The notes beneath the pieces are model-generated. The model saw only the letters and a program-made list of their open reading frames with translations, was not told the origin of the DNA and did not search any database. From Escherichia coli (GTDB lineage: Bacteria > Pseudomonadota > Gammaproteobacteria > Enterobacterales > Enterobacteriaceae): a stretch of 64,000 nt of DNA. Made by a program: the position numbers and the translations under genes. Position 1 is the stretch's first letter. The number at the start of each line of letters is the position of its first letter. The stretch lies in assembly GCF_003018115.1 (NCBI RefSeq), contig NZ_CP027457.1, one strand, 5' to 3'. This document shows, in pieces, positions 3,661-9,582 of the stretch.

Positions 3661-3741
3661 GTAAGCGTCGTCTCAGCACCGTCTGGCAGATCCTGAAATT
3701 CCTGAGAGAATAGTGGACACCAAATATGGTGGACGCAATCC

Positions 3742-4146
3742 ATGAAATCATTAACCGCAGTGCGTAAAAAAAGCCCTAATTATCCCGTTGAGTTCAAAAT
3801 CAAAATGGTTGAACTCTCGCATCGACCAGAGATCTCCGTAGCGCAACTCGCTCGTGAGCATGGGATCAACGATAATTTGCTGTTCAAGTGGCGCCAGTAC
3901 TGGCGCGAAGGAAAACTACGTCCTCCTTCAACAACAGAAAACAACGTGCCTGAGCTGCTCCCGATAACACTTGATGCCGAAGATGTTGTCCCTACAACCT
4001 CCCCCCGGTCACAACCTGTAGCTGCTGCGACACCTGAATCACTCAATATCAGCTGTGAAGTGACGTTCCGGCACGGATCACTCCGTCTGAATGGTGCCAT
4101 CAGCGAAAATATCCTGAACCTGCTGATACGGGAGCTCAAACGTTGA
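3742..4146 (+). CDS. IS66-family TnpA (orf1)
   Basis: 134 aa, HTH-like N-terminus; first ORF of the IS66 triad. Confidence 0.8.
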   Translation: MKSLTAVRKKSPNYPVEFKIKMVELSHRPEISVAQLAREHGINDNLLFKWRQYWREGKLRPPSTTENNVPELLPITLDAEDVVPTTSPRSQPVAAATPESLNISCEVTFRHGSLRLNGAISENILNLLIRELKR

Positions 4147-4490
4147 TCCCATTACCATCAGGGACAAAGATCTGGCTGGTCGCTGGCATCACCGATATGA
4201 GAAACGGCTTCAACGGCCTGGCGGCAAAGGTGCAGACGACGCTGAAAGACGATCCGATGTCAGGTCACGTTTTTATCTTCCGTGGGCGTAATGGCAGTCA
4301 GGTAAAGCTCCTCTGGTCTACCGGCGATGGACTGTGTCTGCTGACCAAACGGCTGGAGCGCGGCCGCTTCGCCTGGCCGTCAGCCCGGGATGGCAAAGTG
4401 TTCCTCACACCGGCACAGCTGGCGATGCTGCTGGAAGGTATCGACTGGCGGCAGCCTAAAAGACTGCTTACGTCCCTGACTATGTTGTAA
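4143..4490 (+). CDS. IS66-family TnpB (orf2)
   Basis: 115 aa MIPLPSGTKIWLVAGITDMRNGFNGLAAKVQ...; overlaps the tnpA stop. Confidence 0.8.
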   Translation: MIPLPSGTKIWLVAGITDMRNGFNGLAAKVQTTLKDDPMSGHVFIFRGRNGSQVKLLWSTGDGLCLLTKRLERGRFAWPSARDGKVFLTPAQLAMLLEGIDWRQPKRLLTSLTML

Positions 4491-4538
4491 GCCTCTTTAT
4501 CCTGGTCGACGCTGAATGAGCCTGGTAATATACCCGGT

Positions 4539-6074
4539 ATGAGCAGCTCACTTCCTGACGATATCAATGCACTGAAACGTCTCCTTGCCGAACAGGAGGC
4601 GCTGAACCGTGCCCTGCAGGAAAAGCTGAACGAGCGTGAACGCGAAATAGACCATCTGCAGGCACAGCTGGATAAGCTGCGCCGGATGAACTTCGGCAGC
4701 CGCTCGGAAAAAGTCTCCCGTCGTATCGCACAGATGGAAGCTGACCTGAAGGCACTTCAGAAAGAAAGTGATACCCTTACCGGTCGGGTTGACGACCCGG
4801 CCGTGCAGCGCCCGCTGCGTCAAACCCGCACCCGCAAACCGTTCCCCGAATCACTCCCCCGCGATGAAAAACGGCTGCTGCCGGCAGCGTCATGCTGCCC
4901 GGAATGTGGAGGCTCGCTGAGCTATCTGGGTGAGGATGCCGCCGAACAGCTGGAGCTGATGCGCAGCGCCTTCCGGGTTATCCGGACTGTACGTGAAAAG
5001 CATGCCTGTACTCAGTGCGATGCCATCGTGCAGGCCCCCGCGCCTTCACGGCCCATCGAGCGGGGTATCGCAGGACCGGGGCTGCTGGCCCGCGTGCTGA
5101 TCTCAAAGTATGCAGAGCACACCCCGCTGTACCGCCAGTCTGAAATGTACGGCCGCCAGGGCGTGGAGCTGAGTCGTTCACTGCTGTCGGGCTGGGTGGA
5201 TGCATGCTGCCGGCTACTGTCACCGCTGGAAGAAGCGCTTCAGGACTATGTGCTGACTGACGGTAAGCTCCATGCTGATGACACGCCTGTCCCGGTGCTG
5301 TTGCCAGGCAATAAGAAAACGAAGACCGGGCGGTTATGGACCTACGTTCGTGACGACCGTAACGCCGGGTCAACGCTGGCGCCGGCGGTGTGGTTCGCTT
5401 ACAGCCCGGACAGAAAAGGCATCCATCCGCAGACCCATCTTGCGGGGTTCAGTGGTGTACTGCAGGCGGATGCATACGCCGGGTTCAACGAGCTGTACCG
5501 GGATGGCCGGATAACGGAAGCCGCCTGTTGGGCTCACGCCCGCCGTAAAATCCACGATGTGCACGTTCGCACCCCGTCAGCCCTGACGGAGGAAGCGCTG
5601 AAACGGATCGGCGAACTGTACGCCATCGAGGCAGAGATAAGGGGAATGACGGCGGAGCAGCGCCTTGCCGAACGTCAGTTGAAAACGAAACCGCTGCTGA
5701 AATCCCTGGAAAGCTGGCTGCGTGAAAAGATGAAAACCCTGTCGCGACACTCAGAACTGGCGAAAGCGTTCGCATACGCCCTGAACCAGTGGCCGGCGCT
5801 GACGTACTATGCAGATGATGGCTGGGCTGAGGCGGACAATAACATCGCTGAAAATGCGTTGCGGATGGTCAGTCTGGGCCGCAAAAACTACCTGTTCTTC
5901 GGTTCGGATCATGGAGGAGAGCGGGGAGCGCTGCTGTACAGCCTGATCGGGACGTGCAAACTGAACGGAGTGGAGCCAGAAAGCTACCTCCGCTATGTCC
6001 TTGACGTCATAGCCGACTGGCCGATAAACCGGGTCGGCGAACTGCTCCCCCTGGCGCGTAGCACTGCCGACTGA
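4539..6074 (+). CDS. IS66-family transposase TnpC (orf3)
   Basis: 511 aa with N-terminal coiled-coil, CxxC pairs (CCPECG, CTQCD) and DDE-type core typical of IS66 transposases. Confidence 0.85.
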
Positions 6075-6115
6075 ATAACACATCCCCGTCAATACGGTTC
6101 TTGCTGCACGCTTAC

Positions 6116-6593: not shown

Positions 6594-6950
6594 TTAAAAA
6601 ATCAGAACGCCGTGCGGCCTCAACACCCGAAAGGCTTCTTTAAATCTCTGTCGCGAATCATCACGCCAGGCATCTTTATTCAGCCGTCCATATTTCTTTC
6701 CCATCCAGGCGTTATCACCAACACTCTCAAGATGCGGAGGGTCTAATACAACCATCGAAAAAGATGCGTCTGCAAATGATAATGCACGAAAATCTGCGAT
6801 AATGTCAGGGCTGATAATCAAGCGTCTCCCATTGCGTAATGTGTATCCTTCTTTTCTGATATCGCTGAATATCGCCCGTTCGTCAGACTTATCGAACCAG
6901 AACATGCGGCTGCCACAGCACATATCAAGAATGGTTGCCGGTGCACTCAC
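6594..6950 (-). CDS. small SAM-dependent methyltransferase-like protein (118 aa), possibly truncated or orphan
   Basis: G-loop-like motif ILDMCCGSRMF and a DPPH motif (DPPY-like amino-methyltransferase motif IV); start overlaps the stop of the upstream ORF by 4 nt. Confidence 0.4.
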   Translation of the reverse strand: MSAPATILDMCCGSRMFWFDKSDERAIFSDIRKEGYTLRNGRRLIISPDIIADFRALSFADASFSMVVLDPPHLESVGDNAWMGKKYGRLNKDAWRDDSRQRFKEAFRVLRPHGVLIF

Positions 6951-7369
6951 TGCGCCACGTCCTGAAAATTACCCTGATAGAAAGCCAGTATGCGCTGCAT
7001 AACTTCGCTCTTCCGGCACTCGCGACAGATTATGTTTAGGCGACTGTCGTAGCGACGTATTTCTCCGTCAGGTGATGACCAGATAAGGTCCGGATCAACC
7101 ACAGCAGGTTTCTTCACCTTTGCCCTCGAGAGTTTTTTGCGGGCGTTTTGCCAGTCCTTACGCGCCTGTTCAGAGGGGAATAACCCGTAGCCGGAGTTGT
7201 ATACATCGCCACTGGCTACCAGCTCTCTGGCAAGAACGCTCATCAGATATCTAGTCGCACCTGTTTTAGCTTCCAGTTGCCGTAACGTCTCACGGCCGCT
7301 CTGGCGCACGAGTTCCACCACCTGCCATTTAATTTTTTCCCGCTCTTCTTGTGTAAAAACTTTTGCCAC
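6947..7369 (-). CDS. hypothetical prophage protein (140 aa)
   Basis: ORF immediately downstream of the replication gene on the same strand; no recognisable family from sequence alone. Confidence 0.4.
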   Translation of the reverse strand: MAKVFTQEEREKIKWQVVELVRQSGRETLRQLEAKTGATRYLMSVLARELVASGDVYNSGYGLFPSEQARKDWQNARKKLSRAKVKKPAVVDPDLIWSSPDGEIRRYDSRLNIICRECRKSEVMQRILAFYQGNFQDVAQ

Positions 7370-7409
7370 AAGTCCCCCTTAAAATTACCTCATGACCTGA
7401 AATCAACAC

Positions 7410-8375
7410 TTATCCTCTGAAACCAGGCGGAATTTCTGTATCCGGTTCAGAAATATGATTAACACAACGCTGTACAGGTGAACGTCCCAGGCGGATGACC
7501 AGTTCGTCCCATTTTTCGCGGAGCTTTGACGGGCTCATGATGTTTTTTACCCAGAATGGATCTCGCTGAACCCGACCAAACATTTCGCAAATTTGTCTGT
7601 GGCTTCTGCCATCCAGCATCCGCATTGTGCGCACGTCATTGGCCCAGGCAGTCCAGTTAGGCTCTTTTGGTCGCATGATCTCGCCATCATCACTGGCTGC
7701 CTGTTCGTAGAGACCCACGATCCGCCCCCAGATCCACTGCGCACACGCCAAATCCTCCCTGCTACCCCACTGGCGTTTTTTCGCACTAAACACAACCGCG
7801 TCGGAGTTCCGGGTTAAAAAATCCTGTTCAGTCGTCTGCGGGTCCGGTTGCGAAGCTTCCGGACGAAAAGTGTTTTTATTCTCTGTAGTAATCTCTGTTG
7901 TATTCTCTGTAAGATCATCAGGCCATTTTGACCCGATGACATTGGGTCGTTTTGAACCAATGGAGCGTTTCATTTTGACCTCTTCCATCGTGTCATTTTG
8001 ACCTGATGGAGCGGCGCATTTTGAACCGATGGATTCGCTCAATTTGCCACCATCTAAAAGCTCGCTCCCATAGTTGATCGTGTAGAAATTGGTCATATCG
8101 CGCTTTGATTTATTGAGCTTTTCACAACGCAAAAGCCCCAGCGTTTTCAGACTTGCAAACGCGCGCTTTAACGTTGACTCTGACCAGAATGGGAACTGTT
8201 CCAGCCATTGTTCCGTTGTGTTATAAATCCAGCGAACACCATCACATTCCATGCCGGAGTTGGTATCTCTCAACCAGTAGTGCAGTTGTTGCAAAACAAT
8301 GGCTTCGTTTAAGCCAATTTTCATTGCCAGCTGCGTGTTTATAACCAGTGGACGTTCAGCAAAAAGAAGGCTCAT
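7410..8375 (-). CDS. phage replication initiator, lambda O-like (replisome organiser)
   Basis: N-terminal region resembles the phage O N-terminal DNA-binding domain; iterons embedded in the coding sequence (protein repeats IGSK); start uncertain: TTG at 8429, ATG at 8375 or ATG at 8324. Confidence 0.6.
   Translation of the reverse strand: MSLLFAERPLVINTQLAMKIGLNEAIVLQQLHYWLRDTNSGMECDGVRWIYNTTEQWLEQFPFWSESTLKRAFASLKTLGLLRCEKLNKSKRDMTNFYTINYGSELLDGGKLSESIGSKCAAPSGQNDTMEEVKMKRSIGSKRPNVIGSKWPDDLTENTTEITTENKNTFRPEASQPDPQTTEQDFLTRNSDAVVFSAKKRQWGSREDLACAQWIWGRIVGLYEQAASDDGEIMRPKEPNWTAWANDVRTMRMLDGRSHRQICEMFGRVQRDPFWVKNIMSPSKLREKWDELVIRLGRSPVQRCVNHISEPDTEIPPGFRG
7924..8054. repeat. iteron array (putative prophage origin of replication) inside the O-like gene
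   Basis: five to six copies of CATTTTGA(C/A)C(N)GATGG-like units at about 23-24 bp spacing (near 7924, 7949, 7971, 7994, 8017, 8041), flanked at 7861-7923 by ATTCTCTGT repeats and an AT-rich stretch. Confidence 0.6.
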
Positions 8376-8877
8376 AATTCCATCCAGCTTTTTGTTGGTA
8401 TTGCTGTCGATACGCAAGTTTGAAAGCAATTGCTTTTTCTATAAGTTCGTCAGTTTCACGATCCACTACGGCAGGATCAGCAAAAAGCAGTCCGGACTCC
8501 ACCACATCGCCATATTCTTTGTTTAACCCGGCGATCATGCACGTGATGCTTTTTCCGTCAGTAATTTCACGATACAACCTGAAATCATTAATCCGGATAG
8601 CCTCCATAATTGCAGGCACTAGCGCCGTGAACTTTTCACGCTTATCCCTGGTGTCGATAGCCTTCCAGCGTTCAAATATCTTCACTCGATTAACGCCAAG
8701 CGCTCGCTGATCAATCGCGCCACCTTCATATGTGACACGCTGAACATCGATGTTCGGGCGCTCTTTCAAAGCCCAGAATGCTTCAGTGATTAATATCGTC
8801 GCCTGCTCCTGTGTCATTCCTGGTCGACATATCCAGGCATCCAGAGCCTCACGAGCCTGTTCAGGAGTGATTTTCAT
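8356..8877 (-). CDS. hypothetical prophage early protein (173 aa)
   Basis: ORF between the cro-like dicC and the O-like gene on the same strand; ATG start. Confidence 0.45.
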   Translation of the reverse strand: MKITPEQAREALDAWICRPGMTQEQATILITEAFWALKERPNIDVQRVTYEGGAIDQRALGVNRVKIFERWKAIDTRDKREKFTALVPAIMEAIRINDFRLYREITDGKSITCMIAGLNKEYGDVVESGLLFADPAVVDRETDELIEKAIAFKLAYRQQYQQKAGWNYEPSFC

Positions 8878-9091
8878 TGTTCAACCGCCCCGCCCGCTTC
8901 GTCTTACGATATTCATCATAAACTTTGGGATCATACTGAAGCTCCCCGCCAGATGCCTCCTGTAGACGCATCGCGCGACCTTCGGGAACTAAATCCCCTT
9001 TCCAGCTATAAAGCGAAGCCAAACGAATACCTGCTGCTTGTGCAAGTTTTGTTTTTGAACCGAAATACAAAAGAGCGTCAGTTTTAAGCAT
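8861..9091 (-). CDS. dicC: DicC, Cro-like repressor of division inhibition
   Basis: 76 aa MLKTDALLYFGSKTKLAQAAGIRLASLYSWKGDL...; divergent from dicA. Confidence 0.85.
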   Translation of the reverse strand: MLKTDALLYFGSKTKLAQAAGIRLASLYSWKGDLVPEGRAMRLQEASGGELQYDPKVYDEYRKTKRAGRLNNENHS

Positions 9092-9174
9092 TTAAAACAC
9101 CTTTATTGTTAGTCATAACTAACAAGATAGATGTTAACAAAAACATAGTCAATACGATTTAGCATTAGCTAACT
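9092..9174. promoter_or_regulatory. dicA-dicC divergent promoter and operator region
   Basis: repeated TTAG(T/C)-N-CTAA-type half-site motifs (TTAGTCATAACTAACAA, TTAGCATTAGCTAACT); similar motifs recur at 9600-9670. Confidence 0.5.
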
Positions 9175-9582
9175 ATGGAAACAAAAAATTTAACTATCGG
9201 CGAACGCATCAGGTATCGTCGGAAAAACCTCAAACACACCCAAAGGTCTCTTGCTAAAGCCCTGAAAATCTCCCATGTGTCTGTATCACAATGGGAACGG
9301 GGTGATAGTGAACCTACAGGGAAGAACCTTTTTGCCCTCAGCAAAGTATTGCAATGCTCACCAACATGGATTCTATTTGGCGATGAAGACAAGCAACCAA
9401 CACCACCTGTTGAGAAGCCAGTTGCCTTATCCCCCAAAGAACTAGAGCTCCTTGAGCTGTTTAATGCACTGCCAGAATCAGAACAGGATACCCAGCTCGC
9501 CGAAATGCGAGCTCGAGTAAAAAACTTCAATAAACTCTTTGAAGAATTACTAAAAGCCCGTCAGCGGACAAATAAAAGATAA
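9175..9582 (+). CDS. dicA: DicA, cI-like HTH repressor
   Basis: 135 aa METKNLTIGERIRYRRKNLKHTQRSLAKALKISHVSVSQWERGDSEPTG... Confidence 0.9.
   Translation: METKNLTIGERIRYRRKNLKHTQRSLAKALKISHVSVSQWERGDSEPTGKNLFALSKVLQCSPTWILFGDEDKQPTPPVEKPVALSPKELELLELFNALPESEQDTQLAEMRARVKNFNKLFEELLKARQRTNKR

Follow-up and report, generated by a model that had tools for sequence, protein, structure and literature searches.

The DNA considered here, a 64,000-nucleotide stretch of Escherichia coli contig NZ_CP027457.1 (the window), contains part of a lambdoid prophage and, within it, a minus-strand gene for an O-like replication initiator that carries an array of repeats in its middle. We conclude, at a probability of roughly 0.85, that positions 7873–8054 are the replication origin of this prophage, which is of the Qin/CP-933O/mEp460 type, and that the origin lies inside the gene of its own initiator. 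That the initiator binds, that the DNA unwinds, how the helicase is loaded and that the origin is active are all inferred from the sequence. The origin is in itself ordinary, as iterons and an unwinding region inside an initiator gene are already a known arrangement. Lambda and related phages have provided examples of it since about 1980.

The iteron array, read directly on the gene strand, consists of six head-to-tail 23-bp units from 8054 to 7916 that share the core GGTCAAAATG (Table 1). The units follow one another in steps of 23, 23, 23, 23 and 24 bp, with one additional base before the last unit (7938–7916). Dyad arms of the form CATCxGG...CCxGATG, like those of the lambda iterons, are present in three of the four good copies. 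The preliminary description of this DNA had reported direct repeats at 23–24 bp spacing inside the open reading frame (ORF), and six units were recovered by direct reading; repeat detection (families spaced 23/23/23 and 24/46/23) and Tandem Repeats Finder (TRF; period 23, 3.7 copies, score 70) both detected the 23-bp periodicity. When searched with up to three mismatches, the 23-mer consensus had two matches in the 64-kb window, both in the array, and none in 100 shuffles. The 10-mer core, with up to one mismatch, had four matches inside 103 bp of the array and four more in the remaining 64 kb on both strands; a Poisson estimate for four or more core matches per 110-bp span is about 1e-10. The iterons code for approximately residues 108–154 of the initiator, which are predicted to be disordered by AlphaFold2, and they encode IGSK motifs as had been described (SIGSK, SIGSK and VIGSK).

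The iterons are followed on the gene strand by three tandem 12-bp repeats of the form ACAGAGAnTAC (7912–7877), which read in order ACAGAGAAT, ACAGAGATT and ACAGAGAAT with 3-nt spacers and whose region encodes the peptide TENTTEITTEN. Repeat detection and TRF gave these 12-mers in plus-strand letters as TATTCTCTGTAG, TAATCTCTGTTG and TATTCTCTGTAA. The triplicate repeats of the preliminary description are therefore real, but had been quoted in their plus-strand form and not as they stand on the gene strand. A nearest-neighbour calculation of duplex stability placed the least stable 40-mer at 7873–7912, with a free energy (dG) of -44.3 kcal/mol. This segment is the stability minimum of the gene (z = 3.0) and of the region 6900–8900, and it stands at the 99.3rd percentile of the whole window. 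It adjoins the iterons downstream on the gene strand, as in lambda, and the identical calculation on lambda O, run as a control, gave a minimum of equal z-score that begins 4 bp past the annotated iteron 4. The AT-rich stretch that had been noted here thus coincides with this minimum, but its A+T content is moderate at 72%. We regard the 12-mers as a candidate for the sequence-specific part of the DNA unwinding element.

The 12-mer block is also found apart from the rest of this gene. A 40-bp block at 7877–7916 (GATCTTACAGAGAATACAACAGAGATTACT...) is 97.5% identical to O genes of Shiga toxin (Stx) phages (L004 2501–2540; L100 2501–2537) in which the iterons, of a GGGAAA type, and both protein domains are unrelated. 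Similarity to other relatives breaks at query positions 467/471, which is at the 12-mer block, and the block seems to serve both as a mosaic junction and as a conserved element of the origin.

We examined variation at synonymous sites in 47 distinct full-length alleles drawn from IMG/VR and phage records. The IMG/VR scan had returned 80 loci, all 98–100% identical, which were useless for deep comparison and were reused for this test; diverged relatives were obtained by tblastn against phage records. Variable third codon positions numbered 2 of 46 in the iterons and 1 of 19 in the 12-mer/AT block, compared to 28/107 in the N-terminal domain (N-domain), 10/28 in the linker, 59/100 in the C-terminal domain (C-domain) and 14/22 in the tail. 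Overall, 3 of 65 third positions varied in the repeats vs 111 of 257 in the rest of the gene (Fisher's test, p = 2e-4 for the comparison with the N-domain and 2e-10 for that with all other parts, values that are indicative only, the alleles being related). Within the 12-mer block the pair Thr-Glu was coded by ACAGAG in 21 of 21 cases, compared to 3 of 16 elsewhere in the same genes (p = 1.6e-7). These comparisons indicate that the repeats are under selection at the DNA level beyond what coding needs.

The protein encoded around the array matches PHROG 391, 'replication initiation O-like', at E = 1.3e-91 (residues 35–339 of the 339-residue ORF against profile positions 11–298 of 298). In a BLASTP comparison with lambda O (1e-26, 34% identity over 148 residues) only residues 147–294, in the C-terminal half, were aligned, and by this similarity the C-domain is homologous to the C-terminal domain of lambda O. 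The O-like protein of the preliminary description was thus confirmed, including its similarity to phage O proteins, with the qualification that the N-domain belongs to another winged-helix family. We had considered an N-domain of the lambda O type (Phage_rep_O, PF04492) and rejected it, since Pfam is blank over the protein (no family at E <= 0.01) and the lambda O alignment is confined to 147–294. NCBIfam gave no family either, except for a 16-bit match of the tail to DnaT. An AlphaFold2 model built from 21 homologues predicts two folded domains (Table 1) separated by a disordered segment, residues 109–178, which is exactly the part coded by the iterons and 12-mers. Iterons within the ORF are possible because the origin DNA also encodes this disordered interdomain linker. 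Foldseek matched the N-domain to winged-helix proteins, including the N-domains of the plasmid RepA initiators 4pql and 4pt7, at a probability of approximately 1 and E-values of 0.03 or above. The N-domain is 51–52% identical to the N-domains of initiators from Staphylococcus and Bacillus phages; it is a winged-helix family common to those initiators and distinct from that of lambda O, and Pfam holds no model for it.

The gene had been described as spanning 7410–8429. The mechanical ORF does extend to a TTG at 8429 (339 residues), but the likely start codon is the ATG at 8375, because the 966-nt coding sequence is annotated in this way in phage records HannyBb, mEp460_ev081 and PhiR42_1. A start at 8375 overlaps the end of the neighbouring cII-like gene by 20 nt. 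In some database entries of 448 residues (P0001, P0002 and P0004) a YdaT-family N-terminus is fused to the initiator, which suggests frameshifted or mis-called joins of the two genes in some genomes.

Relatives share the locus in separate parts. Klebsiella phages have the N-domain, iterons and 12-mers in common with the window (query 471–909, 78% identity) together with an unrelated C-domain. E. coli AVS0465 and others have only the C-domain half in common (query 1–467, 86% identity); they carry another, helix-turn-helix (HTH), N-domain and another family of repeats (TTGACCCGTCAA-like). In the Stx phages and in strain A34, only the 12-mer block matches (query 468/471–507), situated between unrelated iterons and an unrelated C-domain. 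The same N-domain is accompanied by similar iterons and a different N-domain by different iterons, and therefore iteron type follows the N-domain. This is the argument used classically for lambda, phi80, 82 and P22.

The arrangement extends well beyond the enterobacterial phages. Homologous N-domains occur in phages of Erwinia, Hafnia, Pseudomonas, Klebsiella, Staphylococcus, Bacillus, Listeria, Vibrio, Xanthomonas, Burkholderia and Lactobacillus, and in all of these the N-domain part of the gene is followed by two to six iterons of an xxCAAAATGxx type and then by purine-rich ACAGAGA/CCAGAGA repeats. The core GGTCAAAATGAC is kept identically in Staphylococcus phage fPfSau02 gp44 (L091) and Bacillus phage vB_BhaS-171 gp52 (L093), at approximately nt 320–400 of the gene. 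On this sequence evidence the initiator–iteron pair is conserved across phyla, from enterobacterial to Gram-positive phages, and the ACAGAGAnTAC 12-mers may act as a sequence-specific element for unwinding or loading that is likewise common across phyla and to unrelated initiator families. A literature search with the iteron or 12-mer sequences verbatim returned only coincidental matches to primers.

The repeats might instead serve the protein: the IGSK/TENTTE peptide would have a role in structure or binding, and coding would produce the DNA periodicity only as a by-product. The repeats are indeed in frame (SIGSK/SIGSK/VIGSK and TENTTEITTEN), and TE(I/T)TTE-like peptides recur in relatives. 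However, the residues that the repeats encode are those predicted to be disordered, and the amino acids differ between units (IGSK, SGQN and EVKM, the core GGTCAAAATG being read in different frames) while the DNA core is kept. Dyad symmetry of the iteron units is irrelevant to a peptide. Third codon positions, which would be free under selection on the protein alone, are over the repeats the most conserved of the whole gene, and the coding of Thr-Glu is uniform in the 12-mer block and not elsewhere. We consider a purely protein-level role very improbable. A different proposal concerns the 12-mer block, which could be mainly a recombination joint for the swapping of N-domain/iteron and C-domain modules, without a role in strand opening. 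The breaks in similarity that fall at the block, with relatives sharing only the C-domain side, only the N-domain side or only the block itself, are what such a joint would produce. Against this, the block coincides with the minimum in duplex stability and is placed like the unwinding region of lambda, and ACAGAGA-type repeats stand beside iterons in Staphylococcus, Bacillus and Listeria phages, for which exchange with enterobacterial phages is implausible. The two roles are also compatible, as a constrained DNA element is automatically a patch of homology for exchange. A joint without any opening role is in our judgment unlikely.

The array could also be read as a relic in decay, in a prophage that is defective and whose origin and initiator no longer work in this genome. 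The window contains only part of the prophage, two iteron units are degenerate, and the prophage carries an IS66-family insertion at 3662–6115 that is absent from PhiR42_1, in addition to a second insertion sequence (IS) common to both. The initiator ORF is nevertheless intact. Across gene and origin, identity is 99.9% to PhiR42_1, 98.2% to HannyBb and 96.8% to mEp460_ev081, and copies in other genomes are 100% identical. Both degenerate units are identically present in HannyBb and mEp460_ev081, and the conservation of synonymous positions indicates ongoing selection. The near-identity to phages and the sharing of the same degenerate units argue for a functional element and against a relic, and the IS66-family insertion leaves the initiator gene and the origin untouched. 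We find decay of the origin highly unlikely. The preliminary description had taken the replication module to be still intact; its content is that of plaque-forming phages at 97–99.9% identity, but it consists of a single gene and not of an O-P pair like that of lambda.

Returning to the assignment of 7873–8054 as an origin, several considerations weigh against it. The C-domain of lambda O binds P, which is absent here, so that a mechanism of the lambda type is incomplete as it stands, and the authors who describe the class of phages with O as sole replication gene call the replication of that class not yet understood (PMC12315714). Two of the six iteron units are degenerate, and the enrichment in A+T is modest, at 72% vs 78% in lambda. 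For the N-domain, Foldseek gave weak E-values. Relatedness among the alleles of the synonymous-site test, and recombination that inflates the C-domain half, make its p-values overstate independence. The promoter from which the origin would be transcribed is a consensus match only, and promoter-like sites in the region are not above the number in shuffles.

Based on these features, origin firing would proceed in a series of steps. The winged-helix N-domain would bind four to six of the 23-bp iterons, probably as dimers, and the resulting nucleoprotein complex would destabilise the adjoining 40-bp stability minimum with its three 12-mers. Host DnaB helicase would then be loaded at the opened segment. 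Rightward early transcription from the cro promoter would cross the origin, as in lambda. Since the phage carries no gene for P, DnaC or DnaB, helicase loading must use host factors; the likeliest route, held with lower confidence, is that the C-domain and a DnaT-like tail recruit either the host DnaB-DnaC complex or the PriA/PriB primosome.

No homologue of P, DnaC or DnaB was found after the initiator in the window, HannyBb, mEp460 or PhiR42_1, and no helicase, primase or loader gene was found after it at 6594–7409 of the window or in the related loci L001, L002, L005, L006, L007, L101 and L102. The complete genome of HannyBb has no other annotated replication gene. Such O-only modules have been reported for phage LLS and for 34 of 314 lambdoid phages (approximately 11%) (Genome Res 2025, PMC12315714), and relatives of the mEp460 type are named in that study. 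The portions of its text considered here describe no origins and do not mention DnaT or PriA.

The initiator ends in a tail, SEPDTEIPPGFRG / QRCVNHISEPDTEIPPGFRG, that is nearly identical to the final 20 residues of E. coli DnaT and has the consensus ~VNxxSxPDxxIPxGFRG-COOH. The NCBIfam model for DnaT (PRK02854) matches the initiator at 16.2 bits, compared to a cut-off of 201 bits, over model positions 160–179 only, and the DnaT chains 2ru8, 6aep and 9zbt of the PDB match only the last 21 initiator residues. Membership of the DnaT family was rejected, as neither the N-domain of DnaT nor its three-helix domain for binding single-stranded DNA is matched. The label 'Primosomal protein I' in some phage records is a tail-only match, because the match to DnaT is confined to the tail. 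The tail is present on seven of seven O-only initiators examined (window, mEp460_4F5, Klebsiella ST147-VIM1phi7.2, Hafnia yong2, AVS0465, LLS and SPN1S), and also on three initiators that are followed by a DnaC-like loader (Rac YdaU-YdaV, Gifsy-2 O and Shigella 75/02 Stx gp15), an arrangement that mirrors the host dnaT-dnaC operon. These last three led us to reject a strict rule by which the tail marks the absence of a loader gene. Tail-bearing initiators have at least five unrelated N-domains and two C-domains. Sampled initiators lacked the tail where their partner was lambda P, a phage DnaB or a primase-helicase. Searched by tblastn, the tail matched 46 records, all of Escherichia, Salmonella, Klebsiella or Shigella, and the matches lie under replication or primosomal features, bar a few that are unannotated or otherwise named. 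The pattern, a correlation in a small sample, suggests that the tail goes with DnaC-type loading.

From its sequence the tail is a reasonable candidate for a motif that recruits DnaC/DnaB or docks to PriA. A bolder proposal, which we offer tentatively and consider possible though doubtful, is that the tail shared by DnaT and these initiators is a short linear motif that recruits helicase/loader complexes of the DnaB-DnaC type, and that O-only phages replicate by means of it. They would present the DnaT tail at the iteron-bound initiator complex, and its presentation would bypass lambda P, DnaA and the recognition of DNA structure by PriA that operates in replication restart. If true, this would explain how O-only phages replicate and would point to the way in which DnaT recruits DnaB/DnaC, which is stated to be unknown (PMC13377028); a role for the extreme C-terminus of DnaT is not discussed in the parts consulted of a 2026 paper on the preprimosome structure. 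The tail in any case provides a testable hypothesis for helicase loading in single-gene replication modules, and possibly for loading by DnaT as well. Our searches found no paper that links the C-terminal motif of DnaT to O-only lambdoid phages, and searches on 'initiator-solo' or on DnaT with phage O found none on this origin or on the tail in lambdoid phages, except for a note on DopC. DopC is a domesticated O-like protein with the DnaT C-terminal motif (GBE 2017, PMC5509034); DopC loci are without iterons (PMC5509034), unlike the locus described here.

The closest model for the origin is lambda ori with O, together with phi80 gene 15, phage 82 and P22 gene 18. These systems share with the window four to six dyad iterons of approximately 20 bp, spaced approximately 20–24 bp apart in the middle of the initiator gene and, just past them on the gene strand, the A+T-rich segment of lowest stability. 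In both cases the origin-encoded peptide is the interdomain linker, the C-domains are homologous, the N-domain and iterons are swapped as one module, and the gene order is CI, cro, cII-like, O and ren-like. The analogy with lambda ori made in the preliminary description was thus upheld computationally by layout, the lambda stability control, C-domain homology, selection on the DNA and the tracking of iterons with the N-domain. Several features differ from lambda. The N-domain is not Pfam Phage_rep_O, and the iterons are unrelated (GGTCAAAATG here vs TCCCTCAAAACGAGGGA in lambda) and number six units rather than four. Specific 12-mer repeats occupy the place of the A-tract-rich unwinding region of lambda; the P gene is missing, and the DnaT-like tail is one that lambda O lacks.

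Other systems resemble the locus in single parts. In phage LLS the initiator is likewise the sole replication gene, has internal iterons and ends in ...IPEGFRG, but its N-domain is of an HTH type, its iterons are different and its C-domain is of the Phg_2220_C type. The Staphylococcus and Bacillus proteins annotated as 'DnaD-like helicase loader / replication initiation protein' (vB_SauS_fPfSau02 gp44 and vB_BhaS-171 gp52), which share the N-domain at the identity given above, have the core GGTCAAAATGAC just after the part of the gene that encodes this domain and then ACAGAGA / CCAGAGA repeats. Unlike the initiator of the window they have three iterons, a DnaD-type C-domain and no DnaT-like tail, and are followed by their own genes for a helicase loader and a DnaB-type helicase. 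The RepA_N plasmid initiators (pSK41 / pTZ2162 RepA; 4pql, 4pt7 and 5kbj) resemble it in the winged-helix fold of the N-domain, a weak likeness (E >= 0.03), and differ in their C-domains; the initiator has no Pfam RepA_N match. Plasmids of the RepA_N type also carry iterons within the coding sequence of rep, where they separate the parts for the two domains. With E. coli DnaT the initiator has only the tail in common.

Table 1. Positions of the putative origin, its initiator gene and neighbouring prophage features in the window.
Feature	Positions	Strand	Sequence or basis
Iteron unit 1	8054–8032	minus	GATGGTGGCAAATTGAGCGAATC; degenerate
Iteron unit 2	8031–8009	minus	CATCGGTTCAAAATGCGCCGCTC; good copy
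Iteron unit 3	8008–7986	minus	CATCAGGTCAAAATGACACGATG; good copy
Iteron unit 4	7985–7963	minus	GAAGAGGTCAAAATGAAACGCTC; core only, degenerate
Iteron unit 5	7962–7940	minus	CATTGGTTCAAAACGACCCAATG; good copy
Iteron unit 6	7938–7916	minus	CATCGGGTCAAAATGGCCTGATG; good copy
Three 12-mers	7877–7912	minus	Gene strand TTACAGAGAATA, CAACAGAGATTA, CTACAGAGAATA
Least stable 40-mer, candidate first strand-opening site	7873–7912	none	Nearest-neighbour profile
O-like replication initiator gene, 321 residues, 966 nt	7410–8375 (stop codon included)	minus	ORF list; PHROG 391; phage coding sequences
Folded winged-helix N-domain, residues ~11–108, presumed iteron-binding	8052–8345	minus	pLDDT (model confidence) 70–87; Foldseek
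Folded C-domain, residues ~180–298	7482–7838	minus	BLASTP against lambda O; pLDDT 75–92
Disordered C-terminal tail, QRCVNHISEPDTEIPPGFRG	7413–7472	minus	NCBIfam PRK02854; PDB DnaT chains
DUF977/Ren-like gene	6947–7369	minus	Pfam DUF977 5e-29; PHROG 142 'Ren-like exclusion protein'
cII-like/YdaT-family gene	8356–8877	minus	Pfam YdaT_toxin 4.5e-5; PHROG 163 'CII-like'
cro-like gene	8861–9091	minus	Pfam P22_Cro 1.7e-11
pR-like sigma-70 promoter candidate upstream of cro	9124–9152	minus	Consensus scan only, TTGACT-17-TATCTT
CI-type repressor	9175–9582	plus	Pfam/PHROG

The neighbouring genes place the initiator in a lambdoid early region (Table 1). The cro-like and cII-like genes lie directly upstream of it, and the DUF977/Ren-like gene, followed by a methyltransferase gene, lies immediately downstream, where lambda has P and then ren. 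By its position, the pR-like candidate would transcribe the cro, cII-like and O-like genes through the origin. The wider context, with dicA/dicC-type immunity genes, ydfA-C, relBE and flxA, is that of Qin/CP-933O-type prophages, and approximately 15.5 kb of the prophage is inside the window. Apart from the IS66-family insertion the window is collinear with PhiR42_1 at 99.9% identity. The inserted element contains ORFs at 3742–4146, 4143–4490 and 4539–6074 and lies approximately 800 bp downstream of the genes that neighbour the initiator. Its flanks overlap by 9 bp in the PhiR42_1 alignment (L006 7707–7715), consistent with a target-site duplication. We considered whether the element had disrupted the downstream methyltransferase gene and rejected this, as PhiR42_1 has the same 118-residue ORF and the element lies further downstream.

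The initiator gene is present in 2796 of 5426 complete E. coli genomes, or approximately half. In RefSeq it is mostly named 'hypothetical protein', and some phage records mislabel it as 'Primosomal protein I' or 'transcriptional regulator'. The analysis thus supplies an annotation for a widespread unnamed initiator and allows its origin to be located with single-base precision.

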